Source: Nitrospirota bacterium
GTDB taxonomy: Bacteria; Nitrospirota; UBA9217
NCBI GenBank assembly: GCA_035516965.1
Contig: DATIZR010000064.1
Span: forward strand, 6,724 to 70,723
Length of the DNA: 64,000 bases
Direction: 5' to 3'
Shown piece after piece: positions 5,699 to 33,853 of this stretch (position 1 is the first letter of the stretch; each line of letters begins with the position of its first letter). The translations under genes were made by a program, and so were the position numbers. Below the pieces are notes generated by a model that saw only the letters and a list, made by a program, of their open reading frames with translations, did no database searches and was not told the origin of the DNA.

Positions 5699-7180
5699 CT
5701 ACCCCTTCGCCACACGAACGAGGGTGTTGTTCTCGTTCATGCCGTCGATGATGGCGCCGAGGCCGGCCATGTTCTGGAGGTAGTCTATAGCGTCCTGGGA
5801 TATCACCTCCCCGGGGACGAGGAGCGGGATGCCGGGAGGGTACACGGTCACGATCTCGGTCGAGACCCGGCCCGCGGAGTCGTTCACGCTCACCAGTTCG
5901 CTGTCGGAGTAGAAGGCGTCGCGTGGCGTCATGGCGAATTTGTTGTTCAGGACAGGAGGATGGACCCTGTCGAGCGGCAAGAGCGCGCCCTGGAGACCGG
6001 TCTCCGCAGAGATCACCCGGAGCGCCTCCACGAGCCGGTTCAGGTCGTCCTGCCGGTCGCCGATCGAAACGATCACGAGCACGTGGAAGGGATCCGCCAT
6101 CTCGACCTGGATGCCGAAACGGGTGTTCAGCATCTGGGAGACGTGGTAGCCTGAGAGCCCCATGTCGGACACGGTGATGGTGAGTTTCGTAACGTCCATG
6201 TCCGCCATGCCCGCCTGCCTGGCCCGGTCCTTGCCAAAGCAGGTGATGCCCGGGATCTTGTCGATCGACGCTCTCGCATCCTCGGCAAGCTTGATGGTGC
6301 GGTTCAGGAGCTTCTTCCCTTCCGTAGCCATCTGCATCCGGGCAAGGTCGAGGGACGCCATCAGGATGTAGGACGGGCTGGTGGTCTGGAGCAGCTTCAG
6401 CGTGTTCGTCACATCGTCGATATTGATGCGCTCTGCCTTTGCATGCAGCATGGACGCCTGGGTCATGCCGCCTACGATCTTGTGGGTGGACTGCACGCAG
6501 AGGTCGGCCCCGACCTCGAGGGCGCACTTCGGGAGCTTGGGGTTGAACTTGAGGTGCGGGCCGTGTGCCTCGTCCACGAAGACCAGCAGGCCCTTCTCCC
6601 GGGCATAGGGGATGATGTTCTCAATGTCCGCGCACAGGCCGTAGTAGTTCGGGCTTGTGATCAAAAGGGCGCGGGCGCCCGGATTTGCGTCAATGGCCTG
6701 CTTCGCGGTCTCGAACTTGACGTTCAGGGTGAGTTTCAGGTCCCGGTCAAAGGAGGGTTGGAAGAATATCGGCTGGGCGCCGCTCATGATGAGCCCGGTC
6801 AGGACCGAGCGATGGCAGTTGCGCGCGATCAGGACCTTGTCGCCGGGACCGGTCGTGGACGCCACCATGGCGTGGTTCCCCACGGTGGTGCCGTTCACGA
6901 GGAAATAGGAGCGGTCCGCGCCGGCGGCCTTGGCAGCAAGCTCCTGGGCTTCCTTGATGACGCCGGTGGGGTTCTGGAGCGAATCGACCTCATCCAGTGT
7001 CGTGAGATCGATCGAAAAGATGCGGGGCCCCACGAACTTGCGGAACCGCGTGGATATGCCCTTGCCGCTCTTGTGTCCGGGGGTATGGAAGGAGACCTTG
7101 CGGCTTTCCGCGAGGTTCACCATCGCGTCGAACAGGGGGGTGCGGAACTGCTCGTCCTCTATCCGGTTGGGGGCGGTCAT
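5699..7180 (-). CDS. Orn/Lys/Arg decarboxylase family protein (PLP-dependent, SpeA-like arginine decarboxylase of the Bacillus type)
   Basis: 493-aa ORF with an N-terminal region typical of the Orn/Lys/Arg decarboxylase major-domain family (…FHTPGHKSGKG…, …STHKIVGGMTQASMLH…). Context: adjacent to speE/speH. Confidence 0.8.
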   Translation of the reverse strand: MTAPNRIEDEQFRTPLFDAMVNLAESRKVSFHTPGHKSGKGISTRFRKFVGPRIFSIDLTTLDEVDSLQNPTGVIKEAQELAAKAAGADRSYFLVNGTTVGNHAMVASTTGPGDKVLIARNCHRSVLTGLIMSGAQPIFFQPSFDRDLKLTLNVKFETAKQAIDANPGARALLITSPNYYGLCADIENIIPYAREKGLLVFVDEAHGPHLKFNPKLPKCALEVGADLCVQSTHKIVGGMTQASMLHAKAERINIDDVTNTLKLLQTTSPSYILMASLDLARMQMATEGKKLLNRTIKLAEDARASIDKIPGITCFGKDRARQAGMADMDVTKLTITVSDMGLSGYHVSQMLNTRFGIQVEMADPFHVLVIVSIGDRQDDLNRLVEALRVISAETGLQGALLPLDRVHPPVLNNKFAMTPRDAFYSDSELVSVNDSAGRVSTEIVTVYPPGIPLLVPGEVISQDAIDYLQNMAGLGAIIDGMNENNTLVRVAKG

Positions 7181-7315
7181 GCTGTTATGATATCATTTCC
7201 GCGTCCGGAAGGGACAACAAATGCCAGGCGCTCGGATCTCAGAGTATGAGGCGTACCTTGAGGGACACCGCAAGAAAAGGGGTAGAACGCGGCAGAGGGA
7301 CTTTTGCCGAAGCCG

Positions 7316-8236
7316 CTAGTGGTAGGTGAAGAGCGGTGCATTATCTTCGATGATCTTGGTCTCTTCGGCCATGGCCTTCCGGATGTGCTTGGGGAGCATG
7401 TACATGCCCTGGTTGGTGATGCCGTCGTAGTAGCGGTTCTCGCCCTTGATCCGCTTCCTGATCATCTCGTCAAGATGCTTGGGGTCGAACTTCCGGGGAT
7501 CGAGGTTCTTCGAGGCGAGGGTAAAGCCCCAGGGGAGTCCGAAGGATGGTATGCACACGTTATAGGGTGCGACCACGGGAAAGACCGCGTTCAGCGTCTT
7601 GTCCACCGCGGTGAAGTTGAGCAACTGGTGCAGGGCCGTGGTGCCGGCCTGGAGGGCGATGGTCCCGTCCGGGGAAAGCCGCTCCTTCACGATCTCGTAG
7701 AACTCGCGCGTGAACAGGAGGTAGGCCGGGCCTTCCTCAACGGGCTCGGAAATGTCGATGATAATGGCGTCGTAGCTGTCGGTGGTCTCTTCCAGGTACT
7801 TGCGGGCGTCCATGAACCGGAGGTCGGTCCTGGGGTCGTCAAAGGCGCCCTGGTGCCACTCGGGAAGCAGCTCCTTTGACTTTTCGACCACTTCCTGGTC
7901 GATGTCCACCATCATGCAGTACTCGACGCTCTTGTGGCGCAGGACCTCGCGCAGCGTCGCGCCTTCACCGCCGCCCACGATGAACACCCGCTTCGGGTTC
8001 GGATGGGTCAGGAGCGCAGGATGGACCAGTGCCTCATGGTAAATGAACTCGTCGGTGAGGGACGACTGCATCTTGCCGTCCAGGACGAGGCACCGGCCAT
8101 AGCTCCCGCTTTCCATGATCTCCATTGTCTGGTACTTGGTATGGCTGGCGTAATGAATGGTACGGATCCCGTGGATATGACCCTCCTGGGGACTCGTATA
8201 TTCGATGAACCACTTGAAATTCTTGGGTTCTATCAT
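7316..8236 (-). CDS. speE: Polyamine aminopropyltransferase (spermidine synthase)
   Basis: Motifs GGGEGATLREVLRH and MVDIDQEVV (the SpeE SAM-binding fold). Start chosen at MIEPKNFKWFIEY (ATG at 8236), whose ATGA overlaps the speH stop. The longer ORF-track start would overlap speH. Confidence 0.85.
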   Translation of the reverse strand: MIEPKNFKWFIEYTSPQEGHIHGIRTIHYASHTKYQTMEIMESGSYGRCLVLDGKMQSSLTDEFIYHEALVHPALLTHPNPKRVFIVGGGEGATLREVLRHKSVEYCMMVDIDQEVVEKSKELLPEWHQGAFDDPRTDLRFMDARKYLEETTDSYDAIIIDISEPVEEGPAYLLFTREFYEIVKERLSPDGTIALQAGTTALHQLLNFTAVDKTLNAVFPVVAPYNVCIPSFGLPWGFTLASKNLDPRKFDPKHLDEMIRKRIKGENRYYDGITNQGMYMLPKHIRKAMAEETKIIEDNAPLFTYH

Positions 8237-8633
8237 GCTAAGACCGGTTCTCCCTGGGCAAGCGGCTTGTGCGGCAGCTTCTCGGCGCCGAGGATGCCCC
8301 GCTTCATCTCGATGATAGACGGGTTCTTGCACTCAAACTTTTCGATCAGGAATTTTGCGGCAACCCGAGGATCGATCAGGTCCCCGCAGGTGAAAACATC
8401 GACTGCGGCATAGCCGTATTCCGGCCATGTATGGATGGCAAGGTGGGATTCGGCGATGACCACCATCCCGCTGATGCCAAAGGGGCTGAATTCGTGGAAG
8501 GCGACCTCAACAATAGTCGCCTTTGCCTCCAGGGCGGCATTTTTTAGTGTGTCCTGTACAAACTGTAAGCTGCCTAGGGTCTTGGGGTTGCAATCCCTCA
8601 ACTCCAACAACAGGTGAGTCCCCAACGCGTGCA
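8233..8633 (-). CDS. speH: S-adenosylmethionine decarboxylase proenzyme (SpeH/SpeD, small bacterial/archaeal type)
   Basis: Motifs HLAIHTWPEYGYAAVDVFTCG and the ESH (proenzyme self-cleavage) site. The proposed start is TTG at 8633, preceded by AAGGAGG 8 nt upstream (…LHALGTHLLLELRDC aligns to the SpeH N-terminus). Its stop overlaps the speE start. Confidence 0.8.
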
Positions 8634-9337
8634 ACCTGTTTGCCTCCTTCTCCGCCCGCAGATCCTGCTTCCCGGCTTGCCGGGACCCCGCGAGCACCGC
8701 CTTCCGTTCCCACGGAAGGGTTGGTGTTCAAGTCCAAATCCGCCGCGACTTCCGACGGCGCGATCACACACTGAATTTAATGTGTCATTTATCAAAATTG
8801 ATTCTCTTTGTCAAGAAAAAATCTCCTCGAGCTGCATTTTTTTCTCGCGGGAGCATCACTCGCGTCTGACACCACAAGACGAGCGCGATTTTCCGCTCAC
8901 GGGGGCGGACGAGGGAGCGAACTTTTCCGGGCGGGACGCCGTCTGCTGCTCTCCGGAGAGGCTCTCGTCAACGCCAACGCTCCGGCAACTCCCCGATCGA
9001 GCCTTGATCTGCCGTCTCCGGGCATCGCGCAGGTGCGCGTCTGTGCGGGAACGCTCATCAGCGCCGTCCAGAGCGGCGTTTGGCGTCCAAGGAAAGGGAC
9101 GCTGGAGCGATCGGAGAGTTCGAGAAGAAAGCCCGCGGAGAGCACCTTCTCCGGGACTTTCCCGAGCCGAGAAAAAATGCTTTACATCCGGAGCCGATAG
9201 TTTTAATATTGGGCTCTGATTTTGAAGGGTTGGACGCTCCAAACGCACCACAAGATGTAGGGCGGACCGGCCTTTTCGAGTTACCACTATATATAGAAGA
9301 GAGCTTCAGGCATTTCTGCCGACCGGAGGTATCGTCC

Positions 9338-10003
9338 ATGTCTTCAGAGAAGAATTTCGTCGAGGTCGCCTCGGTGCTCGTGAACCCGGAGATCTTCACC
9401 CGCCCCTACACCTGCGACGTGGAAGGATATGACTGCAAATCCCAGTGCTGCTACCGTGCCTGCATCGTGCCGGACCATGAGACGAAGAAGATCGAGGAGC
9501 ACTTCGAGGCCATTCTTTCTTATTTAAGCTCCGAGAACCGGGAGGTCCTGAAAAAGAACGGCACGATCCTCGCCGACTGCAAAAAGCAGTGCCCCAGCGG
9601 CTGCGAGATCCACGAGGACGAGGCCAAGGCCATCCGCAGGACCTTCGGCGGCAAGGACTTCCGCTGCGTCCTGATCCACAACAAGACCTGCTCCCTGCTC
9701 TATACGAACAAGGAGGGATTCCGCTACTGCGCGGTGCACACCTTTGCCATGGACAAGGGCCTCGTCTGGGAGGAGTTCAAGTTCGCGGACTGCGTCCAGT
9801 ACCCCCTCTCCTTCTACACTCTGGCGGACGGCAGGCAGGTGCTCTCGATCCAGGACACCCCCTACCTCGACCACATTCCCTGCATGCAGAAGCCCAAGGG
9901 CGAGCCCATGTACAAGAGCCTCAAGAAGACCATCGAGACGTTCCTGGGCAGGGACTTTTACAAGGCGCTCGACGCCCATGCCGGGAAGAAGCCCAGGAAA
10001 TAA
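9338..10003 (+). CDS. Cysteine/histidine-rich cytoplasmic protein of unknown function (222 aa, about 17 Cys; C-x6-C-x3-CC-x3-C cluster near the N-terminus)
   Basis: ATG at 9338 with GGAGGT 8 nt upstream. No TM segment. The Cys pattern CDVEGYDCKSQCCYRAC is loosely reminiscent of the CxxCxxCC (YkgJ) metal-chelating domains. Followed 73 nt later by a membrane protein on the same strand. Confidence 0.6.
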   Translation: MSSEKNFVEVASVLVNPEIFTRPYTCDVEGYDCKSQCCYRACIVPDHETKKIEEHFEAILSYLSSENREVLKKNGTILADCKKQCPSGCEIHEDEAKAIRRTFGGKDFRCVLIHNKTCSLLYTNKEGFRYCAVHTFAMDKGLVWEEFKFADCVQYPLSFYTLADGRQVLSIQDTPYLDHIPCMQKPKGEPMYKSLKKTIETFLGRDFYKALDAHAGKKPRK

Positions 10004-10076
10004 CCGGCCGGCGGGCTCCGGACAAAACTGCACTCAGGATGGATTTACAATGCTCCCCGTGATATAATCTGAACCC

Positions 10077-10847
10077 ATGGGAAACCTGTTCCTCAGCTTC
10101 ACCATAGCCATCGGCGGCGCCATCGGCCTGGTCACCCTGAGCAGGGTGTTCGACCTGGAAACGTACTCCAGCCGCGTCTTCCCGCTCATCCCCATTCTCT
10201 ACGCGATCATCTACGAGGTCCTCGAACGCAGGAAGACCGGCAAGTCGCAGACGATCCCCCCGTCCCAGGCAAGGGAGGAGATGAGGGCCGGCGCGAAGGC
10301 GCTCTTCAAGAATATCACCCCGGGCCGGATCATCACCGACGTCGCCGTCAGTTTTGCCATCAAGTTCTCTGCCGAGACCCTGCTCGTGGCGCTGTTCATT
10401 TCCACCACGGGCCAGAGCTTCGAGAGCCTCTACGGCAACTTCGGGGTCGACACGGTCGGCCGGCTCCTGCGCGGCGACCATCCCTGGCTCATGGGGACCG
10501 ACGGCCTCATCCTCCTCGGGTTGATCGCGCTGCTGACCAGCATCGGCACCGGGCTCTGGATCGGGAACACCACCCAGGGCCAGGCCATCCTTGAAGGCGT
10601 CGTCGCCGGGGCAGCGGTAACGTTCATCACGGCAATGACGAACATGCTCATGCTCTACCGCAGGATCGAAGAGGCCGCGAACCAGATGGCCGCCTCCTTC
10701 GGATACGGCATCCACGTCGGCTTCGCCGCGGTCCTCCTCGTGCAGGTCCTGCTCTACGGCCTCTGGAGCGGCGTGGCGCAGAAGTCAAAGGAAAAGAAGG
10801 CCCTCCGGGCCGAGGTTAGAAAGTCGGCAAAGAAGCAGAAGAAGTAA
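10077..10847 (+). CDS. Integral membrane protein of unknown function (multiple TM helices, Lys-rich C-terminal tail)
   Basis: 256-aa ORF with hydrophobic segments throughout and the C-terminus …KSKEKKALRAEVRKSAKKQKK. Probably co-transcribed with the 9338..10003 Cys-rich protein. Confidence 0.55.
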   Translation: MGNLFLSFTIAIGGAIGLVTLSRVFDLETYSSRVFPLIPILYAIIYEVLERRKTGKSQTIPPSQAREEMRAGAKALFKNITPGRIITDVAVSFAIKFSAETLLVALFISTTGQSFESLYGNFGVDTVGRLLRGDHPWLMGTDGLILLGLIALLTSIGTGLWIGNTTQGQAILEGVVAGAAVTFITAMTNMLMLYRRIEEAANQMAASFGYGIHVGFAAVLLVQVLLYGLWSGVAQKSKEKKALRAEVRKSAKKQKK

Positions 10848-11067
10848 AGAACCCGCCTCAGAGTAACTCAGAAAGCATCTCCTGCAGATTCCCCTTTTAC
10901 AATAACCTGGTCTCCTTCGTGCTCTTCGCGGCCTGGCAGTGACAGGCTGTGTGCTTTTCATGTTGGTTTGAGGATAGCGCCTTGTCGCTCAGGAAGAAGG
11001 GCAGGATCTTTTTTGGGGAGTATGCGGCACTGTTTCGGAGGAAGGTCGTCAGAGAACCGGTTCTCGG

Positions 11068-11532
11068 TCACAGCCTTCGGGCGCCGAGAAAATGGTCCTT
11101 CCAGTAGGGATCGTCGAGGCTGTCGACACGCACGGTCTTGCCGCTGCTCGGCGCGTGTACGAATTCGTTCTGGCCGGTTGAGATGCCCACATGGGAATAC
11201 TTCTTGCCGTACTGGGTGAAGAACAGCAGATCGCCTTTGCGGATGTCGCGGAAGGATATGGGGGAGGACCTCTGTTTGAGGGCGGCGGTGCCGTGGGGAA
11301 GGTCAAGCCCGGCCGTCAGGTAGCTGTACCGGACGAGTCCGCTGCAGTCGAACCCCTGGGGGCTGTCCCCCTTGAACTTGTAGGGCCTGCCGACGAGGGC
11401 CAGCGCCGTTTTCGCGGCCTTGTCCGCGACCGGGAAGGAATAGCCGCTGACGTGCCCCGGCGGCGGAGCCGAGGCGCAGGCGGAGAATATCACGGCAAGA
11501 AGCACTAGCGAGCACGCCATCGGTAACCGCAT
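11068..11532 (-). CDS. NlpC/P60 (C40) family peptidoglycan endopeptidase lipoprotein
   Basis: Catalytic Cys motif GFDCSGLVRYSY plus a downstream His (YSHVGIS). N-terminal signal MRLPMACSLVLLAVIFSACAS with a lipobox-like FSAC. Start chosen at 11532. Confidence 0.8.
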   Translation of the reverse strand: MRLPMACSLVLLAVIFSACASAPPPGHVSGYSFPVADKAAKTALALVGRPYKFKGDSPQGFDCSGLVRYSYLTAGLDLPHGTAALKQRSSPISFRDIRKGDLLFFTQYGKKYSHVGISTGQNEFVHAPSSGKTVRVDSLDDPYWKDHFLGARRL

Positions 11533-11702
11533 CCAACCCCCTCCCAGCGGCTCCAGTGTAGTAGATTTCTGCTCCCCTGTCAATGAGGACAGGTTGTCAT
11601 TCGGCATGAGGATGACCGGCAGAGCGCTTTTATCCGGATCCCTGTGCGTGCTCCGCTTACAATCCCCTTGACCCCCCTCACGGTCCCTGTTATATTCAGC
11701 CC

Positions 11703-13637
11703 ATGAAACATAAAATCACCTTTCTCCCGGACAACGTCACCGTTGACGTCGACGACAGTACAAACCTGTTCAAGGCCGTGAAAGCGGCGGGCCTGTACGT
11801 GCTCTCGTCCTGCGGCGGCAAGGGCAACTGCGGCAAGTGCAAGGTCATCATCAAGGAAGGGAAGATCGAGAGCGAAAAGTCCCGGTCGTTCCTGACCGCC
11901 GAAGAGGCCAGCCGCGGGTACGCTCTCGCCTGCGTCTCCCAGGTGAAGAGCGGACTCACCGTGGAAATCCCTCCCGAATCGCGCATGCAGGCGAAGCACA
12001 AGATCGCGACAGGCGCGAACACGGAGGAACTGCTCAGGCTCATGAAGCAGGCGGGCGGCTGCCTCGAGTCCCGCATCAACCGCATTTATCTCGAGATCAG
12101 TCAGCCGACGATCGATGACAACATCGCCGATCTCGAACGCGTTCGCCGCGCACTCGACGGCGCCGGTTTCAACGCCGGGCACCTTCACCTGAACTACATG
12201 GTCTTGAGCAAACTGCCCCATGTGCTGCGCGAGGGGAAGTGGAAGGTGACGGCCTCGGTATTCAGTATGGGAGAGGTCCTCGAGGTGCTCGACATCTATG
12301 CGGGCGATGCTACGAAAAGCCGCTACGGAGCTGCCGTGGACATCGGAACGACGACCATCGTCGTGTACCTCGTGGACATGTCGAACGGCCACGTCGTCGG
12401 CACCGCCTCGACCTACAACAGCCAGACAAAGTGCGGCGACGACGTGATCACGAGGATCGTTTATGCGACCGAACGCAACGGGCTGAAGGAGCTCCAGGCG
12501 CTGGCAGTGGACAACATCGGCGCGATGCTCTCCGAGCTGGCGGAAAAACACAACGTCTCCCCGGGCATGATCGACTATATCGTCGTTGCCGGCAACACGA
12601 CCATGGAGCACCTTTTCTATGGCATCGATCCCGCGAACATCCGCGAGGAGCCCTACATACCGGCGGCGACCTTCTTCCCGCTCATCCGCGGCAAGAGCGT
12701 GGGTCTCCAGATCCACCCGCAGGCGATCATTTATTCCATGCCGAACGTGGCAAGCTACGTGGGCGGCGACATCACCGCCGGCGTGCTCGTGTCCCAGATC
12801 CACAGACAGGACCCGGTATCGCTGTTCATCGATATCGGTACGAACGGCGAGATCGTGCTCGGCAACAAGGAATGGCTCGTGACGGCGGCGTGCTCGGCCG
12901 GACCGGCCTTCGAAGGGAGCGGCATCAAGTTCGGCATGCGGGCCATGGAAGGCGCGATCGAGGAGGTCGAGATCGATCCCCTGACCTTTGAGGTGAACTA
13001 CCGGGTCATCGGCGACACGAAGCCGATCGGCATCTGCGGGTCCGGAATGATCGACGCCCTTGCCGAGATGTACCTCAACGGGGTCATCGACCAGAAAGGC
13101 AAGATCAGGGAGGAGATCAAGTCCAAGCGCATCCGGCGGGGCGAGAGCGGGCTTGAGTTCGTTCTCTCGTGGCGGGTCGAGAGCGCCGTCAACAAGGAGA
13201 TCGTGATCACCGAAGTTGACCTGGACAATCTCATCCGGGCCAAGGCCGCCATCTACGCCGGGTTCGCCACGCTGCTGTCGCACATGGGAATGACCTTCAA
13301 CGACATCCAGAAGCTCTACATCGCCGGCGGATTCGGACGCTACATTGACGTGGAGCGCGCGATCACCATCGGCATGCTGCCCGACATGCCCGTGAACAAG
13401 TTTCAGTTCCTCGGAAACACCTCGATCATGGGGGCCTACTACGCGCTCCTCTGCGACCGGCTCCGGCATGAGGCCGAGGAGATCGCGAAGAAGATGACCT
13501 ACATCGAGCTGTCCGTGTCGCGCAGCTTCATGGACGAGTACATGTCCGCCCTCTTCCTGCCCCATACGAACCTTGACGCATTCCCCACCGTGAAGAAGGA
13601 GATGAAGCGCGGAAGGAACTGGTACAAGCCTGAGTAA
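11703..13637 (+). CDS. RACo-like protein: N-terminal plant-type 2Fe-2S ferredoxin domain fused to an ASKHA-fold ATPase domain (DUF4445; corrinoid activation/regeneration protein family)
   Basis: N-terminus MKHKITFLPDNVTVDVDD…SSCGGKGNCGKCKV is the RACo-type [2Fe-2S] motif. 644 aa matches the RACo size. Gly-rich ASKHA segments (DIGTTTIVVYLVD…, IAGGFGRY) are present. Confidence 0.75.
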   Translation: MKHKITFLPDNVTVDVDDSTNLFKAVKAAGLYVLSSCGGKGNCGKCKVIIKEGKIESEKSRSFLTAEEASRGYALACVSQVKSGLTVEIPPESRMQAKHKIATGANTEELLRLMKQAGGCLESRINRIYLEISQPTIDDNIADLERVRRALDGAGFNAGHLHLNYMVLSKLPHVLREGKWKVTASVFSMGEVLEVLDIYAGDATKSRYGAAVDIGTTTIVVYLVDMSNGHVVGTASTYNSQTKCGDDVITRIVYATERNGLKELQALAVDNIGAMLSELAEKHNVSPGMIDYIVVAGNTTMEHLFYGIDPANIREEPYIPAATFFPLIRGKSVGLQIHPQAIIYSMPNVASYVGGDITAGVLVSQIHRQDPVSLFIDIGTNGEIVLGNKEWLVTAACSAGPAFEGSGIKFGMRAMEGAIEEVEIDPLTFEVNYRVIGDTKPIGICGSGMIDALAEMYLNGVIDQKGKIREEIKSKRIRRGESGLEFVLSWRVESAVNKEIVITEVDLDNLIRAKAAIYAGFATLLSHMGMTFNDIQKLYIAGGFGRYIDVERAITIGMLPDMPVNKFQFLGNTSIMGAYYALLCDRLRHEAEEIAKKMTYIELSVSRSFMDEYMSALFLPHTNLDAFPTVKKEMKRGRNWYKPE

Positions 13638-13900
13638 AGCGTTCCCGAACGTGCATCCAACGAAAGAGGCTGCCACCATTCGCCGCGCACGGACCTAGAC
13701 GCGTTCCCTCCGGTGAAGAAAGCGCTCGCGGGGAGAAAAAAGCATGGCTCCATTGTCCATCTTGACGGAGGCGGGATGAGACCCGTCCCGGTCCCGCATC
13801 CCCCTTCAGCGCCATCACATTTATATTTCCCATTCAACCTTCTTAATCCGGCCGTGTCTCATAATATGAGACAGCAAAACCGGAAAGGAGGTGAATCCCT

Positions 13901-14110
13901 ATGAAAAGGATAGTCGCTCTGTTCACGGCAGTGGCGTTCGCCCTGACCCTCGGCGTTGCGTTCGCTGAGGATAAGGCGCCGGCCGCGGCGGATAAGGCGC
14001 CGGCAACATCGGAAAAGGCCCCCGCTAAGGCGAAGAAAGCCAAGAAGACGAAGCACGTCAAGAAGCACAAACAGGAAGCAGCAGCGCCGGCAGCTCCCAC
14101 CACGAAGTAG
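13901..14110 (+). CDS. Small secreted Lys/Ala/Pro-rich protein (69 aa, signal peptide plus KAPAAADKAPA repeats)
   Basis: Strong RBS ggaaaggagg 7 nt upstream of the ATG at 13901. Signal peptide MKRIVALFTAVAFALTLGVAFA. Low-complexity basic tail. A rho-independent terminator follows. Confidence 0.55.
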   Translation: MKRIVALFTAVAFALTLGVAFAEDKAPAAADKAPATSEKAPAKAKKAKKTKHVKKHKQEAAAPAAPTTK

Positions 14111-14186
14111 CAGCATGAGCAGCACATGACTGCATACCGCCATTTCATTATACCGGGCGGCAAAAGCCATACATGAGGAACACCAG

Positions 14187-14222
14187 AAGGCCTGTCAGAT
14201 CTGACAGGCCTTTTGCTTTTTG
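14187..14222 (+). terminator. Rho-independent terminator (aaggcctgtcag-at-ctgacaggcctt followed by a T-rich run)
   Basis: Perfect 12-bp stem and 2-nt loop read directly from the sequence, followed by ttgcttttt. Confidence 0.6.
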
Positions 14223-14494: not shown

Positions 14495-14803
14495 TTACCC
14501 GCAGCATCCTCCGGCACTGCCGCCGCTGCAGTCGCAGGTCGGCGGTCCGCCGTTGATAAGGCTGTTGATGATGGCCGAGGCGCAGCCGACGCCGGAGCTG
14601 ACCGTGATCGCGCCGAATTCGCAGTTCAGGGCGCAGGCCCCGCACTCCATGCAGAGGTCCCGGTCCAGGACCGCGGCCCGTTTGTCCCGCATGGCGAAGA
14701 CGCCGCGCGGGCAGACCTCGACGCACCTGCCGCAGCCGGCGCATTTGTCAGCGATATAATTGAGCGTTGTCACGTTCGCGAGGTATTTCACAGTACCCTC
14801 CAT
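14495..14803 (-). CDS. hgcB: Mercury methylation ferredoxin HgcB (2x[4Fe-4S] ferredoxin with a C-terminal Cys-rich tail)
   Basis: 102 aa with two CX2CX2CX3CP motifs (CAGCGRCVEVCP, CMECGACALNC) and the tail …PPTCDCSGGSAGGCCG ending in vicinal Cys. The ATG at 14803 overlaps the hgcA 3' end by 16 nt. Confidence 0.9.
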   Translation of the reverse strand: MEGTVKYLANVTTLNYIADKCAGCGRCVEVCPRGVFAMRDKRAAVLDRDLCMECGACALNCEFGAITVSSGVGCASAIINSLINGGPPTCDCSGGSAGGCCG

Positions 14804-15867
14804 TCCTGAAGCTTGTACAGCACCAAGAGGACGGCCGAAACGACTGCCGTGCCGAGATACACCGGGATGCCGATCTTCAGCTCCCGGTTCACGCCCGACA
14901 TGCCCGTGTAGGTCGTGGAGCCCGTGAACTGGAGCGCGATATAGGAGCTGAACGCGGGAAAAAGCAGGTAGGCGGCAGCGATTAGAAGCATGCTGCCGCG
15001 ATCGACGATGCCGAAGACCTGCATCGCGAGCAGGGCCATGGCCAGTCCCATGATCCACCCTTTGATCGCGAAGGACCGGAACGGAACGAAAGGAAGTAAG
15101 ACCGGCGTCACGAAGGCGCCTGCAAAGACCGCGATCAGGCCCATCACCAGGAACGGCAGGCCGCCAAACCACGCCTGCCTGAACAGAAGGCCCGTGGGCT
15201 CGAGCCCGAACAAGAGCAGCACGCCGGCCGCGAACCAGGGATACCTCTTCATCGCCGGATTGATCTCCATCGGTGTCAGGATGAGCCGGTCACTCATCGC
15301 GAACGTTATCGTTCCCATCTCCCTCGTCTTCTTATACCCGCCCCTGACATAGGCGGGAATGTCCCGGGCCTGCACCGGGCCGAAGGATACGCGAAAGCCC
15401 GTTCTTTGCTGGACCGCTGCCGCGCTCACACCGACCGCTCCGAGCTGGGGAAGGATGATACGACGGTGGTTCACGACGGAGTCGAGCTTCACTTCCGAGA
15501 TCTGTTTCACCAGCTCGTCCGTCCCGAAGGTCCCCTTGCCTGCCGCACACCACACATTGATGCTCTTCGTGTCGAGCACCAACACCCAGGCGTCCATGCC
15601 CCTGAGCGATTGCCTCAGGATATCGAAGGTCAGTTTGTAATTGGCGGTGACGAAGACGTCGGAACCCTTCGTCGGCCCTCCGATTGCGTACAAACCCGGA
15701 TGGACCGGATAGTTCATCCGGAACGCGCTCACCCGGCTCTTGATCATGCCCCAGTAGTCCGCGCGTACCCAGTCGGAAGAGACACGACTTACCATGCCAA
15801 CGGATGAATTGACGGTGCCCTTAACATAACCGGGCATTTCCTTCTTCACGAACTTCAATGTCTGCAT
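14788..15867 (-). CDS. hgcA: Mercury methylation corrinoid protein HgcA (CFeSP-like corrinoid-binding domain plus a C-terminal multi-TM domain)
   Basis: Contains the diagnostic cap-helix motif SINVWCAAGKGTFGTDELV, i.e. N(V/I)WCA(A/G)GK, with the strictly conserved Cys. The C-terminal approximately 150 aa form 4-5 hydrophobic helices. ATG at 15867 with AGAGGTGA upstream. Confidence 0.9.
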   Translation of the reverse strand: MQTLKFVKKEMPGYVKGTVNSSVGMVSRVSSDWVRADYWGMIKSRVSAFRMNYPVHPGLYAIGGPTKGSDVFVTANYKLTFDILRQSLRGMDAWVLVLDTKSINVWCAAGKGTFGTDELVKQISEVKLDSVVNHRRIILPQLGAVGVSAAAVQQRTGFRVSFGPVQARDIPAYVRGGYKKTREMGTITFAMSDRLILTPMEINPAMKRYPWFAAGVLLLFGLEPTGLLFRQAWFGGLPFLVMGLIAVFAGAFVTPVLLPFVPFRSFAIKGWIMGLAMALLAMQVFGIVDRGSMLLIAAAYLLFPAFSSYIALQFTGSTTYTGMSGVNRELKIGIPVYLGTAVVSAVLLVLYKLQEWRVL

Positions 15868-15902: not shown

Positions 15903-16982
15903 TCATACGGGCTTTGATTCCCTGATCCTGCAATGCTCTACGATAAAATATTTTTTCTGGAAATACAGAGCAACGTTCACCAGGCCTATCAGGACAGGGA
16001 CCTCGACAAGCGGGCCGATGACCGCGGCAAATGCTGACCCCGAGTTAAGTCCAAAGACGGCGACGGCAACGGCAATGGCGAGCTCAAAGTTGTTGCTGGC
16101 AGCGGTAAATGACAGGGTGGCCGTCTTTTGATAGTCCGCCCCGATCTTCTTCCCCAGGTAGAACGACACCAGGAACATTGCCACAAAATAGATCAGGAGC
16201 GGAACCGCTATTCTTACAACATCGAGGGGAAGCCTGATGATGTAGTTGCCTTTCAGCGAGAACATTACGATGATCGTAAAAAGGAGAAATATCAGCGTCA
16301 GTGGGCTTATTTTGGGAATGAATGCCTGTTCGTACCATTGACGACCCTTGGCCCTCACCATGCTGAACCTTGTTGCCGATCCCGCGAGGAACGGAATGCC
16401 GAGGTAGATAAATACGCTCTCGGCGATCTGGCCGATTGAAACAGGTACGACCGCACCTTTCAGCCCGAGCCATGCAGGAAGGATCGTGATGAAGACATAC
16501 GCATATACGGAAAAGAACAGAACCTGGAATACCGAATTGAAAGCCACGAGGCCGGCGGCGTATTCCGTATCTCCGCATGCAAGGTCATTCCAGACGATGA
16601 CCATTGCGATGCAACGGGCCAGGCCGATCATGATAAGTCCAACCATGTATTCCGGATAATCGTGCAGAAAAATAACGGCCAGCAAAAACATCAGGATCGG
16701 ACCGATCACCCAGTTCTGCACGAGCGAAAGGGCAAGCACTTTCTTGTTCCTGAATACCTCCCCGAGCTCCTCATACTTTACTTTCGCCAGGGGCGGGTAC
16801 ATCATTAAAATGAGGCCGACTGCAATGGGAATATTGGTCGTCCCAATCTGAAAACGGTTGATAAGTTTTTCCATTGCGGGGATGAAATAGCCGAGACCGA
16901 CTCCCAGCGCCATTGCACTGAATATCCAGAGGGTCAGATACCTGTCCAGGAAAGAAAGTCTTTTAGCCGCTGTGTCGTTCAT
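15903..16982 (-). CDS. acr3: Arsenite efflux transporter, ACR3 family
   Basis: N-terminus [25 protein letters not shown] and 10 TM segments are typical of Acr3/ArsB-type (BART superfamily) permeases. 359 aa. Confidence 0.85.
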
Positions 16983-17010
16983 CGATTCCCTCTGGTCCTT
17001 AGACTATGAA

Positions 17011-17694
17011 TTATTCATTCTCAGCCGCGCCCGCCCGGCAAGACCCGCCGCACACGCAGGCAAGGCTTTTTGCCTTCGCTTTCTTGAAAGCCTCTTTTCC
17101 CTCCCGGTAGCAGAGGCCCGCAATCACGAATGCGCCGATGGAGTCGATCCCGCTTATATGGGTGAGTTCGTATCCAACGCTTGCTATGAGCAGAACGATT
17201 GAGAGCTGCAAGCAGGCGCGGGTGCAGGCGGCATCGGATAAAATAGCCTCGGAATTGAGCTGTCTCCCTGCTTTTACTTTATAGCGGACCAGGAGCCACA
17301 TCGTGGCAATGGAAATGACGGACACAACAATGCCCCAGAACGCAGTATCCGGTTTATGCCCCCGGTACAGGTCGACAGCAGCAGTGATCGACAGCCCGAT
17401 CGTCAGAACAAAGAATCCGGCTCCCGTTATCCTGAGCGCCGTCTGCTCGAACGTGTCGGGATCCTCTTTGTCGTTATTCCTGATCCTTCGCACCATGTGC
17501 CAGATTCCGATGCCCGAAATAACTTCAACGAAGGAATCCGCTCCAAATCCGAAGAGCGCCAAACTGCCGTCTTCGAGACCGAAAAAAACGGAGACCACGC
17601 CTTCAACAATATTGTATGCGATGGTGATGAGCGCCAGTGCGGAGGCAAAGGAATAGAGTCTGCTTTTTTGCTGAGTGAACCCCGGGGTTATCAT
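17011..17694 (-). CDS. Short cation-diffusion-facilitator (CDF)-like membrane transporter (TM domain only, Cys-rich C-terminus)
   Basis: LALITIAYNIVEGVVSVFFGLEDGSLALFGFGADSFVEV matches the CDF TM1-2 signature. 227 aa, no cytoplasmic CTD. C-terminus …ACVCGGSC. RBS GGAGGAG upstream of the ATG at 17694. Confidence 0.6.
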   Translation of the reverse strand: MITPGFTQQKSRLYSFASALALITIAYNIVEGVVSVFFGLEDGSLALFGFGADSFVEVISGIGIWHMVRRIRNNDKEDPDTFEQTALRITGAGFFVLTIGLSITAAVDLYRGHKPDTAFWGIVVSVISIATMWLLVRYKVKAGRQLNSEAILSDAACTRACLQLSIVLLIASVGYELTHISGIDSIGAFVIAGLCYREGKEAFKKAKAKSLACVCGGSCRAGAAENE

Positions 17695-17795
17695 ATGCTG
17701 CTCCTCCTCGGAGGCGGCAAGTTGAGCTTAAGGGACACCGAATGAACCATTCTGCCCCGCCGGCAATCGGCCTCATCATCCTTCATTCCCCATCG

Positions 17796-18512
17796 TTACT
17801 TGCCTTGTCTCAGTTTCTCCGCGAAATAAATTGGCAGACCGCCCGCTGTGATAGCTGCTGCCGTTTTTTCGACATCGTACGGGACCCGGATGAAGTCCGT
17901 GGCCACCGAGTCCGGCGTGATCTCTAACACGGCAACACACGCGCGCGGGTCTCCGTCCTTCGGCTTGCCGACACTCCCGGCATTGATGAACATTTTCCCG
18001 TCGATGTCCTTGCGATAAGGCTTATGAGTATGGCCATAGATCAGGACGTCTGCGTCGGTTTTGTCGGACATCTCTTTGAAGAACTTTTCCGGCCGGTCCT
18101 CATACCAGTAGAGATTGTTCTTGCGCGGCGACGCATGAAAGAGGGAGACTTTTTTCCCGTCTGCAGTGAAGCTGATTTCCGTCGGAAGATGCTTCAAGAA
18201 CTCCTTCGTCCTCCCGGTTGCGTGCTTCTTTGTCCACTCAAACGAGAGCGTGGCCATCTGCTCCTGAACAGGGTCTTCATATTTGCATCCGCAGTGTTCA
18301 CGGTCATTCGCCACGGCCTCATCATAGTTACCCTGAACCCCGGCAATTCCATGATCGATCAGGAAGTCCGCAACCTCGTTTACAAAGGGGGCATATCCCC
18401 CAAGGTCCCCGAGGTGAAATATTTGATCCACGTTGATGCGGAGTACCTCTTCGTATGCGGCATTGAGGGCTTCACTGTTTCCGTGGATGTCTCCGAATAT
18501 AGCCAGCTTCAT
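17796..18512 (-). CDS. Calcineurin-like metallophosphoesterase (YfcE/MJ0936-like)
   Basis: Motifs MKLAIFGDIHGN… and DQIFHLGDLGGY (GDxHG / GDxxDRG-like metal-binding motifs). Its stop overlaps the arsR 3' end. Confidence 0.75.
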   Translation of the reverse strand: MKLAIFGDIHGNSEALNAAYEEVLRINVDQIFHLGDLGGYAPFVNEVADFLIDHGIAGVQGNYDEAVANDREHCGCKYEDPVQEQMATLSFEWTKKHATGRTKEFLKHLPTEISFTADGKKVSLFHASPRKNNLYWYEDRPEKFFKEMSDKTDADVLIYGHTHKPYRKDIDGKMFINAGSVGKPKDGDPRACVAVLEITPDSVATDFIRVPYDVEKTAAAITAGGLPIYFAEKLRQGK

Positions 18513-18515
18513 GCG

Positions 18516-18893
18516 TCATCTCCCGCAACAGGCTGCCTTCCCGCGCAGACTGGTGATGACCGCCTTTGCGGTTTTCTCCTTTTTAAACAGGGCTAGTCTT
18601 TTCTTATCTTCCTTCATTGCATCCTCTGAAATTCTCTCGATCACGCTCAGCATGAGGAGCCGCTTGAGCATATCCGAATCATTGAGGCGATAATGTATCC
18701 ACTTCCCCTGCTTCCTGTCTTGAATGAACCCCGCTTCTTTCAGCACACCAAGGTGAAAGGAAACCTTGGACTGTGCCATGGCAAGCGCGGCAACAATATC
18801 GCACACGCAAAGCTCGCCTTGCTCCAGCAGTTTTACGATCCGTAGCCGCGTCTCGTCAGATAGGGCCTTGAATAAAGAGACCAGGTCCTGCAT
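18516..18893 (-). CDS. arsR: ArsR/SmtB family metalloregulator with the As(III)-type ELCVCD metal site
   Basis: Helix-turn-helix region LFKALSDETRLRIVKLL…ELCVCDIVAAL…SKVSFHLGVLKEAGF. The Cys-x-Cys in helix 3 is typical of arsenite-responsive ArsR. Start at 18893 (MQDLV…) with GGAGGG 6 nt upstream. Confidence 0.85.
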   Translation of the reverse strand: MQDLVSLFKALSDETRLRIVKLLEQGELCVCDIVAALAMAQSKVSFHLGVLKEAGFIQDRKQGKWIHYRLNDSDMLKRLLMLSVIERISEDAMKEDKKRLALFKKEKTAKAVITSLRGKAACCGR

Positions 18894-18904
18894 GCGCCCT
18901 CCAC

Positions 18905-28443: not shown

Positions 28444-28687
28444 AATCAGACCTCCTTTTCTTTGGATAAGTATTCGGAAATTGACCTGAAGCGACAGTTT
28501 TGGGCCGTAATTCCCGTCCATTTCTGGCGGTCCGTTCAATTAAGAGTTGTTTTTTACCTGGTATTGACCCTATAATCGATCTTAAATATTACTTTGACAG
28601 ATAACTGTTTTGTGCTACAATGGTTTCTATACCAACCATTTGTATCACAGGGCTTTCCCGTTGTCAAGAGTCAATTTGGAGGTTTCG

Positions 28688-29203
28688 ATGGCGGAAAAAA
28701 ACGATGCTGTGGCTGAGATCATAGACAACATACGCAGGGTATTTCAGGTCGTGAACGAACAATCAAAGCTTGCTGAACATAAGACTGGCCTTACCGGACC
28801 TCAGCTCTGGGCGATCAAGACCATCGCCCAGGGCGCCCCGATCATGGTATCGGAAATCGCAATGCGCATGCATCTCCACCCTGCAACTGTGGTGGGAATA
28901 CTGGACCGCCTCGAGACCCGCGGCCTCGTGCGTCGTGTCCGTTCAACAGAGGACCGCCGTGTCGTTCGTGTCGAACTGACCGCCCAGGGAGAAAACCTCG
29001 TAAAGAAATCTCCCGAAGTGGCGCAGGGGCTCCTGGTTTCAGGGCTCGAACAACTGAAAACAAAGAACCTGAAAACCATTGCCGCAGCCCTGGACCAGTT
29101 GGTCGAGATTCTGGGTGCGCAGGGAATACCCCCGAAACTCATCCTCTCGTCTGAAGTGAACAAGCCTGCAAAATCAGTGTCCAGGAGAACGCGATCGCGC
29201 TGA
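28688..29203 (+). CDS. MarR-family transcriptional regulator
   Basis: Winged-helix region LTGPQLWAIKTIAQGAPIMVSEIAMRMHLHPATVVGILDRLETRGLVRRVRSTEDRRVVRVELT. ATG at 28688 with GGAGG upstream. Confidence 0.8.
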   Translation: MAEKNDAVAEIIDNIRRVFQVVNEQSKLAEHKTGLTGPQLWAIKTIAQGAPIMVSEIAMRMHLHPATVVGILDRLETRGLVRRVRSTEDRRVVRVELTAQGENLVKKSPEVAQGLLVSGLEQLKTKNLKTIAAALDQLVEILGAQGIPPKLILSSEVNKPAKSVSRRTRSR

Positions 29204-29227
29204 TTTTTTTATGGTGCCTGATTACCT

Positions 29228-30262
29228 ATGAACAAGAAAGATCGGACATACATGCTTTCGGTCAACAGAAACATCTTATTGAGCGCCGTCCTGGCCGCTT
29301 TCGCGATCGGTGTCTTTATCGGCAGCGGATTTATAGCACTGACCACTCCTGGTCAAACGGAGAAAACAGCTCCCCTTGTCCCGGATGGAAACTTCAGATT
29401 TATTCGCACTGCTATGGCACTGAAGGAAGGTGGCGAAAACCGTCACAGCATGGAGCTTGCGCCCTTTCGCTATAAGATCAAGGCTTTGATAGATGAGAAG
29501 ATCAATCGGAATGAGGTAAAAGCTGCATCAGTTTACTTCCGCGATCTTAACAATGGTAATTGGTTCGGCATCGGAGAAAAAGAGAAGTTCTCGCCCAAAA
29601 GTCTTTTGAAACTGCCTCTCATGCTAGCCTATTTCAAGTGGGCGGAATCGAATCCACTCGTTTTACGGAAAAGGCTTACTTATAACGCTTCCCAGGGCCC
29701 CCTCGATCCGGAACCGAACAGGGGAAAAACAGGATTGGAATCAGACAGACCGTATACGGTAAACGATCTTATCTACCGGATGATGACCGAGGATGATAAT
29801 GACGCCTATTCACTATTGTTTGCCAACATACCGCGTCAAAGGATCGATAAGGTGTTCAAGGATCTGAATGTCGAATACGACCCCCATACTGAAGATGATT
29901 CCTTGTCACTCAGGGCATTTGCTTCCTTCTACCGGGTTCTCTTTAACGCATCCTATCTCAGCGAAAAAATGTCTGAAAAGGCTCTCATGTATCTCGCAAG
30001 ATCTTCCTTGAAGCATGGCATGGCGTCTGGCATTCCGTTGAACATTGACATCGCAGGCAAGTTCGGAGAGAGAACGGTTAAAACCACGATAGAGGGAAAG
30101 GAAACAGAGCTTCATCAGATGCACGAGTTCGGAATTATCTATCATCCCCGCCGTCCTTTTCTCATCGGCATCATGGTGCGGGGAGATGACGCAAACACGC
30201 TCACCAGGATCATCCACGACATTACAAAACTCGTCTATGAGGAAGTCGATCAGCAGTCGTAA
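29228..30262 (+). CDS. Membrane-anchored serine-hydrolase-like protein of the class A beta-lactamase fold (tentative)
   Basis: N-terminal TM anchor. A candidate S-x-x-K motif (FSPKSLLK) about 70 aa after the anchor. An overall size and spacing similar to class A beta-lactamase/PBP-like proteins, but the SDN and KTG boxes are not canonical. Lower-GC region. Confidence 0.35.
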   Translation: MNKKDRTYMLSVNRNILLSAVLAAFAIGVFIGSGFIALTTPGQTEKTAPLVPDGNFRFIRTAMALKEGGENRHSMELAPFRYKIKALIDEKINRNEVKAASVYFRDLNNGNWFGIGEKEKFSPKSLLKLPLMLAYFKWAESNPLVLRKRLTYNASQGPLDPEPNRGKTGLESDRPYTVNDLIYRMMTEDDNDAYSLLFANIPRQRIDKVFKDLNVEYDPHTEDDSLSLRAFASFYRVLFNASYLSEKMSEKALMYLARSSLKHGMASGIPLNIDIAGKFGERTVKTTIEGKETELHQMHEFGIIYHPRRPFLIGIMVRGDDANTLTRIIHDITKLVYEEVDQQS

Positions 30263-30672
30263 GCCTCCCCTGTTTGCCTTTCAGATTAAGTGCTATTCGA
30301 GGTTTCAAGATGGTTCATGATAGGCGGACTGATCCAAACGGCAATCAGGTTCGGAACGTCGAGAACGGATCCTTTCCGGAGGCACCCTGTTTCTCACAGG
30401 CGTATCAATTCTTTCGGAATTATATAGATGACAAACGCAACTATTCAGAAAGCAATTTTTTGGGTTGTGTTTGTATCGTTGGTGTTGAATGTGATTGTAA
30501 TGGTCGGGACACGACAATTGCGGGCGAGGGTTGAGAAGATTGAATCCACCTTTGGATTACAGGCCATGCCGCAATTGCAGCAAACACCATTGCAAAAAAG
30601 CCAACAATCAAAGTGAGATGGATTGAACGCTGTATGCGTCTTTCATCAAGCTCTATGATGGCGGCAACATGA

Positions 30673-31770: not shown

Positions 31771-31872
31771 GGTCTTCGTTTAAAAAACCCGAGCACACAA
31801 ATTCCGTACTACTCCGTAACATAACATCAAGAACGTCCTCCATGCCTTTTGCGTCTGTCCATAGTTTTTTCC

Positions 31873-33144: not shown

Positions 33145-33394
33145 GCGGGATTATAGCATGAAAATTATTTATTGCCATTATTATCAAATCGAGGCATGGC
33201 GCACTTCATCGCGTGTCATGCGAGGAGCGAAGCGATGAAATAATCTTTACCGCGAGATTGCCGCGCTCCAAGCAGCAATGACCGACAAGTCAAGAGAACA
33301 ATAGCAATAGGATGGTCAATTTCGTTGTGCAATAAATTGATTTCTGATAGACTCATTTTGTCGCTTGATATACGGTTAGATCCAGAGAGGCAAA

Positions 33395-33853
33395 ATGCGA
33401 TTATTTTTGGGATTGATTTCTGCACCGATTATGATTTTCATTTTTTTAGTAAGTCTCAGTGGTGCAGCAGATACTTTTACTATTTCAAAAAGTTCTGGTG
33501 GTGGCTTTGCAGCAACACACCATATTCTTTCAGTTAATCAGGATGGCGTCGTTACGAGAAAAATAATTTCTTTTGTCATGCCATCACAAAATAATAGAGA
33601 AGAAGTAGTAGGAAAAGTAAATATCGAAGATGCAAAGCATTTATATTCACGTTTAAGGCAGATAGATTTTGAAAAAATTGAATACCATCAGCCAAGCAAT
33701 ATAAGTGCGTCACTCGGTCTAACTGTTAACTCAAAATATTACGAAGTAACTTGGCATGGAAATCCGGAAGAAATAAAGGCTGTTTTAGATATATATAATG
33801 AGATGACAAAATTACTTGCTCCTATCATTGATCCTATAACAAAAAAAGATTAA
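33395..33853 (+). CDS. Hypothetical secreted protein in a strongly AT-rich islet
   Basis: Signal-peptide-like N-terminus MRLFLGLISAPIMIFIFLVSLSGAA. The surrounding approximately 600 nt are far more AT-rich than the rest of the window. Confidence 0.4.
   Translation: MRLFLGLISAPIMIFIFLVSLSGAADTFTISKSSGGGFAATHHILSVNQDGVVTRKIISFVMPSQNNREEVVGKVNIEDAKHLYSRLRQIDFEKIEYHQPSNISASLGLTVNSKYYEVTWHGNPEEIKAVLDIYNEMTKLLAPIIDPITKKD

Follow-up and report, generated by a model that had tools for sequence, protein, structure and literature searches.

The 64,000-nucleotide stretch of Nitrospirota DNA analysed here (hereafter the window) carries a gene for a RACo-type protein close to the mercury methylation genes hgcA and hgcB, and thereby raises the question whether this protein is the activator of HgcA. 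The route by which oxidatively inactivated HgcA returns to Co(I) is of considerable interest, and an ATP-dependent activase linked to it genetically would have given direct access to this step. An initial annotation of the window proposed the gene as a candidate for a dedicated HgcA activator and held that, to its knowledge, no such activator had been established. It is correct that no ATP-dependent activator of HgcA has been established, but the idea itself was already proposed by Date et al. 2019, who suggested a RACo homologue for ATP-dependent Co(II)-to-Co(I) activation of HgcA but could not corroborate such a role when they treated lysate with ATP and AMP-PNP (bioRxiv 10.1101/510180). A literature search linking hgcA with DUF4445, or UBA9217 with hgcA, found nothing. 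In the 2024 reconstitution of HgcAB, Ti(III) citrate was used as reductant and the physiological electron source was stated to be unknown (PMC11588087).

The gene in question (11703..13637, forward strand) encodes 644 amino acids and, as judged from its domains and its closest structural match, is a genuine RACo-type protein, i.e. a predicted ATP-driven reductive activator of cobalt-corrinoid proteins. The profile-HMM check recovered all four RACo domains above their Pfam cut-offs and bears out the architecture described in the initial annotation, a 2Fe-2S domain combined with an ASKHA ATPase. These are an N-terminal [2Fe-2S] ferredoxin domain (Fer2, residues 9-82, E 1.5e-12), a linker (RACo_linker, residues 121-204, 70 bits), a middle domain (Raco_middle, residues 208-369, 201 bits) and a C-terminal ASKHA ATPase (RACo_C_ter, residues 372-631, 376 bits, E 8e-113). 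The ferredoxin motif CGGKGNCGKCKV occupies residues 37-48, and the cluster cysteines C37, C43, C46 and C77 all align with cysteines of the RACo structure PDB 3ZYY. Homology to 3ZYY extends over residues 2-630 (E 3.6e-183; 48% identity across 623 aligned residues) and rises in the ASKHA domain to 59%, both to 3ZYY and to the RACo chain of 4C1N, the RACo:CFeSP complex; in the alignment to 3ZYY the nucleotide motifs DIGTTT, DIGTNGE and AGGFG are kept. A promoter-like site (TTGACC-17-TATATT with an extended -10 TG; 11668..11696, forward strand), recognised by consensus scan only, immediately precedes the RACo ATG; it falls within the 95 bp that separate RACo from the divergent NlpC/P60 gene. A crude GC3-based gene picker had chosen an antisense open reading frame at 11580-13679, which was dropped given the HMM evidence for RACo.

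The best-known relative is RACo of Carboxydothermus hydrogenoformans (CHY_1224; 3ZYY; 4C1N with CFeSP), which has the same four-domain architecture and length. The four [2Fe-2S] cysteines, the ASKHA phosphate and adenosine motifs and the segment ACSAGPAFEG are kept in the window protein, while identity in the linker domain is only 28%. The genomic setting also differs: CHY_1224 lies in or near the acs cluster (cited in bioRxiv 10.1101/510180), whereas in the window and in 82 Nitrospirota loci RACo stands alone among housekeeping genes. Among curated families the top NCBIfam match by far is AcsV (NF040756), which aligns along its full length (residues 4-628 of the protein, model positions 1-632); its score of 720.8 bits stays below the cut-off of 800, so that the NCBI rule would not name the window protein AcsV. 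RamA (TIGR04270) shares the ASKHA ATPase core with the window RACo, but scores only 122.5 bits against a cut-off of 500 and matches this core alone (residues 208-619), and the protein is not a RamA. In RamA, C-terminal [4Fe-4S] clusters take the place of the N-terminal 2Fe-2S domain.

The initial annotation had RACo convergent with hgcB, with a 69-aa open reading frame between them, and this holds, both hgc genes being genuine. The hgcB gene (14495..14803, reverse strand) encodes a 2x[4Fe-4S] ferredoxin of 102 aa that scores 120.5 bits with the NCBIfam model HgcB NF040864 (cut-off 99) and contains two CX2CX2CX3C motifs and a C-terminal CC pair. The corrinoid protein HgcA (359 aa; 14788..15867, reverse strand) scores 388.6 bits with NF040863 (cut-off 275), carries the cap-helix motif NVWCAAGKGTF and a C-terminal membrane domain, and matches at 100% identity an NCBI protein from a Nitrospirota MAG that bears the name HgcA (P0121). 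The RACo and hgcB stop codons are 857 bp apart. The intervening 69-aa reading frame (13901..14110, forward strand), which the public record likewise lists as a gene, is preceded by an AGGAGG ribosome-binding site 8 nt before its ATG and has a signal-peptide-like N-terminus and a Lys/Ala/Pro-rich tail; the Asr profile matches it weakly (26 bits against a 50-bit cut-off). Across the 170 loci fetched for comparison no homologue of it was found; we regard it as specific to the window's lineage and do not count it in any system.

Upstream of hgcA, on the same reverse strand, NCBIfam and Pfam models identify acr3 (15903-16982), a CDF cation efflux gene (17011-17694), a metallophosphoesterase gene (MPE; 17796-18512) and arsR (18516-18920). 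The order arsR-MPE-CDF-acr3-hgcA-hgcB is co-oriented with intergenic gaps of 4-100 bp and hgcAB at the distal end. In the window, hgcAB is thus the tail of an arsR-led metal-resistance operon running toward RACo, similar to known ArsR-regulated hgcAB operons, a conserved partnership in which RACo has no part. A promoter-like site (TTGACA-17-TAACAT; 18928..18956, reverse strand), again from a consensus scan only, lies directly upstream of arsR, and beyond it follow an EamA transporter and an FlK-type thioesterase (Pfam; 19055..20379, reverse strand). A strong terminator-like hairpin (14184..14215) with a 14-bp stem, including seven G-C pairs, followed by a T-run, separates RACo and the 69-aa reading frame from the hgcAB operon that converges on them. 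With convergent orientation, this hairpin between them and one promoter-like site each, RACo and hgcAB are predicted to be transcribed separately, and no sign of shared transcription or regulation was found in these features. An Rfam scan returned only a tmRNA, with no cobalamin riboswitch near RACo or hgcAB.

The comparison with other genomes, based on a set of ~170 related loci, reveals that RACo has a fixed place in Nitrospirota. More than 120 RACo homologues are 80-98% identical to the window protein, and every named one is from Nitrospirota. An orthologue (72-87% identity) occupies the same syntenic position in ~47 Nitrospirota species genomes. The block upstream of RACo (5699..11607) consists of genes for a speA-like decarboxylase (5699-7180, reverse strand), spermidine synthase (speE; 7316-8332, reverse), AdoMet decarboxylase (speD; 8233-8697, reverse), a DUF3109 protein (9080-10003, forward), a membrane protein (10077-10847, forward) and NlpC/P60 (11068-11607, reverse), all assigned by Pfam and tblastn synteny. 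The same genes in the same order precede RACo in ~35-47 loci at 50-95% identity (tblastn), including the UBA9217 namesake MAG (L038). RACo is a conserved resident gene anchored to this polyamine/cell-wall block, and hgcAB belongs to variable DNA beside it.

Neighbourhood statistics, which the initial annotation had proposed as a check, give no support for a tie between this RACo clade and hgcAB. Informative RACo loci were those with at least 5 kb of downstream sequence (n=33, made up of 31 loci from the genome collection together with L081 and L082). Downstream of RACo, hgcAB was present in one of the 31 collection loci and in two of the 33 after L081 and L082 were added; the two carriers, with hgcAB within 10 kb, are L037 and L082. 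These form one small RACo subclade with the window and with L081, which is hgcAB-negative. The reverse test covered 80 diverse metagenomic HgcA loci (42-73% identity, 587 kb of flank) as well as five further places of hgcAB in Nitrospirota with long flanks (L164-L168). Neither the 80 loci (0/80) nor the five others had a full-length RACo in their flanks, while ArsR-like genes, which served as positive control, were present in 23 of the 80. The order arsR-MPE-acr3-hgcA-hgcB recurs in three of the loci (L084, L086 and L087), and hgcAB of the same clade also occurs in other, RACo-free settings, of which there are at least three. Conserved co-localisation of RACo across hgcAB-bearing lineages is therefore not observed (0/80 HgcA loci; 2/33 RACo loci). 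Because RACo is resident and hgcAB lies in the neighbouring variable DNA in one small lineage only, the closeness of the two genes says little in favour of a dedicated partnership.

The 3' flank of RACo is a variable insertion hotspot: extra copies of the RACo 3' end follow the intact gene in L021, in L024 (twice) and in L063, and a lone RACo remnant is found in L169. Among the genes carried in this flank are HigB/Gp49-HTH toxin-antitoxin pairs, an ISL3 transposase and a restriction-modification system. The window and L037 have both outer flanks in common, RACo on one side and EamA-FlK on the other, the latter matching L037 at 20055-21406 with 72-76% identity. These shared flanks show that hgcAB sits in orthologous position in the two and indicate one inherited placement with remodelled contents. 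Among the window, L037 and L082, identity of the HgcA proteins is only 71-73%, and the genes upstream of them differ. These differences had led us to consider independent, repeated capture of hgcAB beside RACo, which we rejected as the main reading since the window and L037 share both flanks. By this comparison, the linkage in the window arose by chance in the history of the locus within a single lineage.

Which corrinoid protein, then, does RACo serve? We consider it likely that the gene is the resident Wood-Ljungdahl-type (AcsV-like) RACo activase of UBA9217-like Nitrospirota; its adjacency to hgcAB is lineage-specific. By analogy with the Carboxydothermus orthologue, the [2Fe-2S] domain would take an electron from a cellular donor, RACo would dock on a corrinoid protein left inactive in the Co(II) state, and binding and hydrolysis of ATP by the ASKHA domain would power the energetically unfavourable electron transfer back to Co(I). 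The main client would most likely be CFeSP (AcsCD), encoded elsewhere in the genome, as the literature on the clade and homology suggest; class UBA9217 has been reported to encode acsABCDE (PMC11033732). In ~6 loci of more distant Nitrospirota orthologues, fdhA-fhs is found upstream of RACo. In one small subclade, the variable region past the RACo 3' end happens to hold hgcAB; HgcA may be a second client, a dedicated role being neither required nor supported by the genomic evidence. CFeSP as client is deduced from literature and homology, not from context, because no acsC/acsD-like gene was found within 10 kb of RACo in 82 Nitrospirota loci (1.25 Mb). The initial annotation had named RACo orthologues beside acsCD as evidence that would speak against its proposal, and no such arrangement came to light in these loci. 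A search for CFeSP-like genes near RACo in the 82 loci, with the HgcA corrinoid domain as query (E < 1), returned only the HgcA genes of L037 and L082. No gene for a corrinoid protein other than HgcA has thus been seen close to this RACo clade, which, like the AcsV score slightly under its cut-off, counts against the Wood-Ljungdahl reading. Within the window, ~45 open reading frames scanned with Pfam across 64 kb yielded no acetyl-CoA-pathway or corrinoid-methyltransferase gene, in agreement with the initial annotation; the sole B12-related hit is to a radical-SAM protein (54826-56589), in which a B12-binding domain is matched weakly.

Several observations of the initial annotation thus stand, namely the identity of RACo, its true adjacency to hgcAB and the lack of any other client in the window; the step from adjacency to a dedicated activator does not. 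That a RACo clade evolved for HgcA and is for this reason encoded beside it would agree with the 857-bp gap to hgcB and with the missing corrinoid client in 64 kb, but we consider it very improbable. Orthologues of 72-87% identity occupy the same slot in dozens of genomes that are devoid of hgcAB within 10 kb, hgcAB of the same clade does without RACo in at least three other contexts, the neighbourhood counts of 2/33 and 0/80 speak against it, and the two genes are convergent with a terminator between them. Moreover, the protein is highly conserved relative to the CFeSP activase, with AcsV as its best-scoring profile. RACo-family activases serve several methyltransferase systems, and RACo might accordingly act on another corrinoid methyltransferase encoded elsewhere (of the O-demethylase, methylamine- or glycine-betaine-type, or Mec-like) instead of the Wood-Ljungdahl CFeSP. 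Absence of acs genes near RACo in 82 loci and the AcsV score under the curated cut-off would fit such a client; we nevertheless hold it to be improbable, since the N-terminal 2Fe-2S architecture is that of the CFeSP activase and not of the RamA type (TIGR04270, 122/500 bits), related orthologues adjoin fdhA-fhs, and the clade is reported to be acsABCDE-positive (PMC11033732).

A role shared between CFeSP and HgcA deserves more weight, though it too appears rather unlikely. In hgcAB-positive Nitrospirota the resident RACo would reactivate both CFeSP and Co(II)-HgcA, docking on the CFeSP-like corrinoid domain of HgcA and using ATP to restore Co(I), and HgcB would relay electrons in turnover only. 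The corrinoid domain of HgcA matches CdhD and the acetyl-CoA synthase gamma subunit, and RACo is closely related to the activase whose crystal structure in complex with CFeSP is known. The low-potential electron source for HgcAB reactivation is stated to be unknown, but with Ti(III) citrate and SAM the purified HgcAB attains Co(I) and completes turnover in the absence of any activase (PMC11588087). Likewise, the experiments of Date et al. 2019, who raised this role, point in both directions: AMP-PNP cut methylmercury formation by 33%, but added ATP lowered rather than raised methylation in the ND132 lysate and the authors were unable to confirm the role (bioRxiv 10.1101/510180). In the six methylator genomes of that study, the locus tags place RACo far from hgcAB, in contrast to the 0.9 kb seen here in one Nitrospirota subclade only. 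Neighbourhood enrichment is absent (0/80 HgcA loci, 2/33 RACo loci), and HgcA differs from CFeSP in being membrane-anchored with, according to the literature, Cys-on ligation. On the other hand, at least three genomes (the window, L037 and L082) have kept the two close together, and L169 retains a remnant, although the genes in between have been extensively replaced; this persistence could reflect weak selection. That selection for shared use explains it, with a single RACo doubling as Co(II)-HgcA reactivase in hgcAB-positive UBA9217-like Nitrospirota, strikes us as doubtful; if true, this lineage would offer a first clue from genomes to the reactivation step that is missing from mercury methylation.

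The linkage in the window adds little to the hypothesis of 2019, and RACo should not be annotated as an hgc accessory gene from adjacency alone. Attention is directed instead to the genes that are conserved as neighbours of hgcAB in Nitrospirota, i.e. arsR/acr3/metallophosphoesterase, a MazE/AbrB-like regulator and a secreted protein of ~420 aa.

The gene at 11703-13637(+) encodes a 644-aa RACo, a protein that reductively activates corrinoid proteins, and is an ordinary RACo/AcsV family member in the genome of an uncultured Nitrospirota. All four of its Pfam matches (Fer2, residues 9-82; RACo_linker, 121-204; Raco_middle, 208-369; RACo_C_ter, 372-631, E 8e-113) exceed their own gathering scores. 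Of the curated NCBIfam models, AcsV ('corrinoid activation/regeneration protein') scores highest and aligns end-to-end at 720.8 bits, slightly short of its 800-bit cut-off; the RamA model reaches only 122 bits, below its cut-off of 500. In comparison with proteins of solved structure, it aligns to the RACo from Carboxydothermus hydrogenoformans (3ZYY; E 3.6e-183 over residues 2-630) and to the RACo chains in 4C1N, the complex with the Wood-Ljungdahl corrinoid protein CFeSP (AcsCD). It shares 48% of its residues with 3ZYY overall and 59% across the ASKHA ATPase domain, with the cluster cysteines C37, C43, C46 and C77 and the nucleotide motifs DIGTTT, DIGTNGE and AGGFG being kept. More than 120 homologues share 80-98% identity, and every named one belongs to Nitrospirota.

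The neighbouring mercury-methylation genes hgcB (14495-14803(-)) and hgcA (14788-15867(-)) score above their curated cut-offs, and HgcA is 100% identical to a protein named HgcA in an NCBI Nitrospirota MAG. The initial annotation, which had described a RACo architecture beside hgcAB and proposed a profile-HMM check, was thus correct in every particular. On the minus strand, arsR (18516-18920(-), with a promoter-like site immediately 5'), a metallophosphoesterase (MPE) gene, a CDF transporter gene, acr3, hgcA and hgcB are co-oriented and tightly packed, hgcAB being distal; gaps in the run into hgcAB (15903-18920(-)) measure 4-100 bp. This putative fusion of hgcAB into an arsenic/metal-resistance operon has parallels in three related loci fetched from other genomes or metagenomes (L084, L086, L087), which show the order arsR-MPE-acr3-hgcA-hgcB. 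RACo has a promoter-like site of its own, in the 95-bp divergent gap to an NlpC/P60 gene. Because they are convergent and each has its own promoter-like site, RACo and hgcAB are separate transcription units. Between them lie a hairpin with a 14-bp stem and a T-run (14184-14215) and a 69-aa ORF (13901-14110(+)), predicted to be secreted, with a signal peptide, a Lys/Ala/Pro-rich tail, a strong ribosome-binding site (AGGAGG) and its own terminator. The ORF had no homologue in any of the ~170 related loci searched, and its one family match, Asr-like, was sub-threshold.

From this proximity it had been proposed that RACo is a dedicated activator of the HgcA corrinoid, an idea that neighbourhood statistics make very unlikely. 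A scan of 185,579 species genomes yielded 80 RACo loci. In ~47 of these (RACo 72-87% identical) the gene is anchored by an upstream block of constant order and orientation, namely a speA-like decarboxylase, speE, speD, DUF3109, a membrane protein and NlpC/P60; MAG UBA9217 (L038), namesake of the GTDB class, is likewise syntenic with the window, which probably belongs to that class. Synteny ends directly 3' of RACo. Where RACo was 72-87% identical and at least 5 kb of downstream sequence was available, hgcB/hgcA occurred in one of 31 loci (L037, 2.8 kb off). Two closer relatives were added by exact-protein look-up: L082 (RACo 88%) has hgcAB 7.4 kb from RACo, past unrelated genes, and L081 (RACo 89%) carries a restriction-modification system 3' of RACo, without hgcAB. 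A neighbour-joining tree places these three loci and the window in one small RACo subclade. Conversely, none of 80 metagenomic HgcA loci (42-73% identity; 587 kb of flank; 33 with at least 3 kb past hgcB) had a RACo match at E < 1e-3; ArsR-like genes were found in 23 of the 80, so the method is able to find real conserved neighbours. RACo is also absent from Nitrospirota hgcAB loci with long flanks (L164, L165, L166, L167/L168), and L169 retains just a 92-aa 3' remnant (17169-17444), 5.8 kb beyond hgcB.

Nor is the idea new. RACo homologues in methylators were pointed out by Date et al. 2019 (bioRxiv 10.1101/510180); in their six methylators the homologue is likewise distant from hgcAB. These authors hypothesised ATP-dependent activation of HgcA and tried it in ND132 lysate, where adding ATP cut methylmercury formation to roughly half and AMP-PNP reduced it by 33%; in their words, they 'could not confirm' it. 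The initial annotation was right that such an activator is not established. In a 2024 reconstitution (PMC11588087), Ti(III) citrate brought purified HgcAB to Co(I), the methyl donor was identified as SAM and the relay of electrons was assigned to the HgcB clusters, the physiological electron source being left open. A RACo shared between HgcA and another client is biochemically plausible, if rather unlikely, and the neighbourhood data contribute little to this question.

Within 10 kb of RACo, 82 Nitrospirota loci (1.25 Mb) contained no CFeSP-like genes except HgcA of L037 and L082; the surroundings of the gene thus do not point to a client. Indirect lines make Wood-Ljungdahl CFeSP the most likely one: a similarity to the CFeSP activase that is close and extends over the full length, the top score of the AcsV profile, a very high conservation across the clade, on par with adjoining housekeeping genes, the presence of selenocysteine-type fdhA and fhs 5' of the orthologue in ~6 more distant Nitrospirota loci, and a published report of acsABCDE in the classes UBA9217 and Thermodesulfovibrionia (PMC11033732). 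In L067 (2716-7745) and L062 (4452-6080), with RACo at 50-52% identity, the in-frame TGA splitting the formate dehydrogenase alpha gene, found 5' of the RACo orthologue along with formate-tetrahydrofolate ligase, probably encodes selenocysteine.

The closeness of RACo and hgcAB is real but confined to one lineage, and the history of the locus explains it. In the window and in L037 the outer flanks are the same, with RACo at one end and EamA-FlK at the other, and the inner genes differ: the 69-aa ORF and acr3-CDF-MPE-arsR in the window, a GNAT acetyltransferase, a 419-aa protein, a MazE/AbrB-like gene and an 800-aa protein in L037. The simplest reading is that hgcAB would have been placed once, ancestrally, into a variable region, followed by remodelling and by loss in L081 and L045. 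Duplicated 3' ends with cargo, together with the L081 restriction-modification system, mark the RACo 3' end as an insertion hotspot for accessory DNA; the duplications and the lone L169 remnant suggest a site-specific one in Nitrospirota. Such duplicates lie 3' of the intact gene in L021 (861-3869), L063 (10001-12722) and, as two tandem copies, L024 (4342-10810). They are direct and span the last 150-270 bp of RACo; the first L024 copy is near-identical DNA over ~270 bp, stop codon and terminator included, and the DNA separating the L024 copies encodes two toxin-antitoxin pairs of the HigB/Gp49-HTH kind plus an ISL3 transposase.

A steadier neighbour of hgcAB than RACo is a ~420-aa signal-peptide protein with faint Omp85 matches only, 3' of hgcB in at least seven Nitrospirota loci at 59-94% identity (L037:13132-14391; L082:16616-17896; L164:11714-12994; L165:12043-13389; L166:13922-15001; L169:15308-16570; L089:~1673); it also occurs 3' of RACo in L045, where hgcAB is absent. 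Directly 5' of hgcA, 18 loci carry a MazE/AbrB-like gene of ~90 aa (e.g. L164:9588-9860; L037:16300-16575; L082:21465-21752), which seems to stand in for the ArsR-type regulator of the window and the 23 metagenomic loci.

GC content in the window is ~0.60 at RACo and hgcAB, falls to 0.50-0.55 over the ars genes and, at 26-32 kb, is lower still (0.44-0.49). The stretch 24000-34000 (0.40-0.51 vs ~0.60 elsewhere) is probably acquired DNA; it contains a CLC channel, OmpA-family genes, MarR, a class A beta-lactamase-like gene and two large ORFs (30673-31770, 31873-33144) without a Pfam match. Further along are a tmRNA (50123-50477(-); Rfam 202.9 bits; tag peptide ANNELALAA) and the sole other possibly cobalamin-related gene of the window, a radical-SAM gene (54826-56589(-); Radical_SAM_N2 domain, weak B12-binding match) adjoining a Cu-oxidase_4 (YfiH-like) gene.
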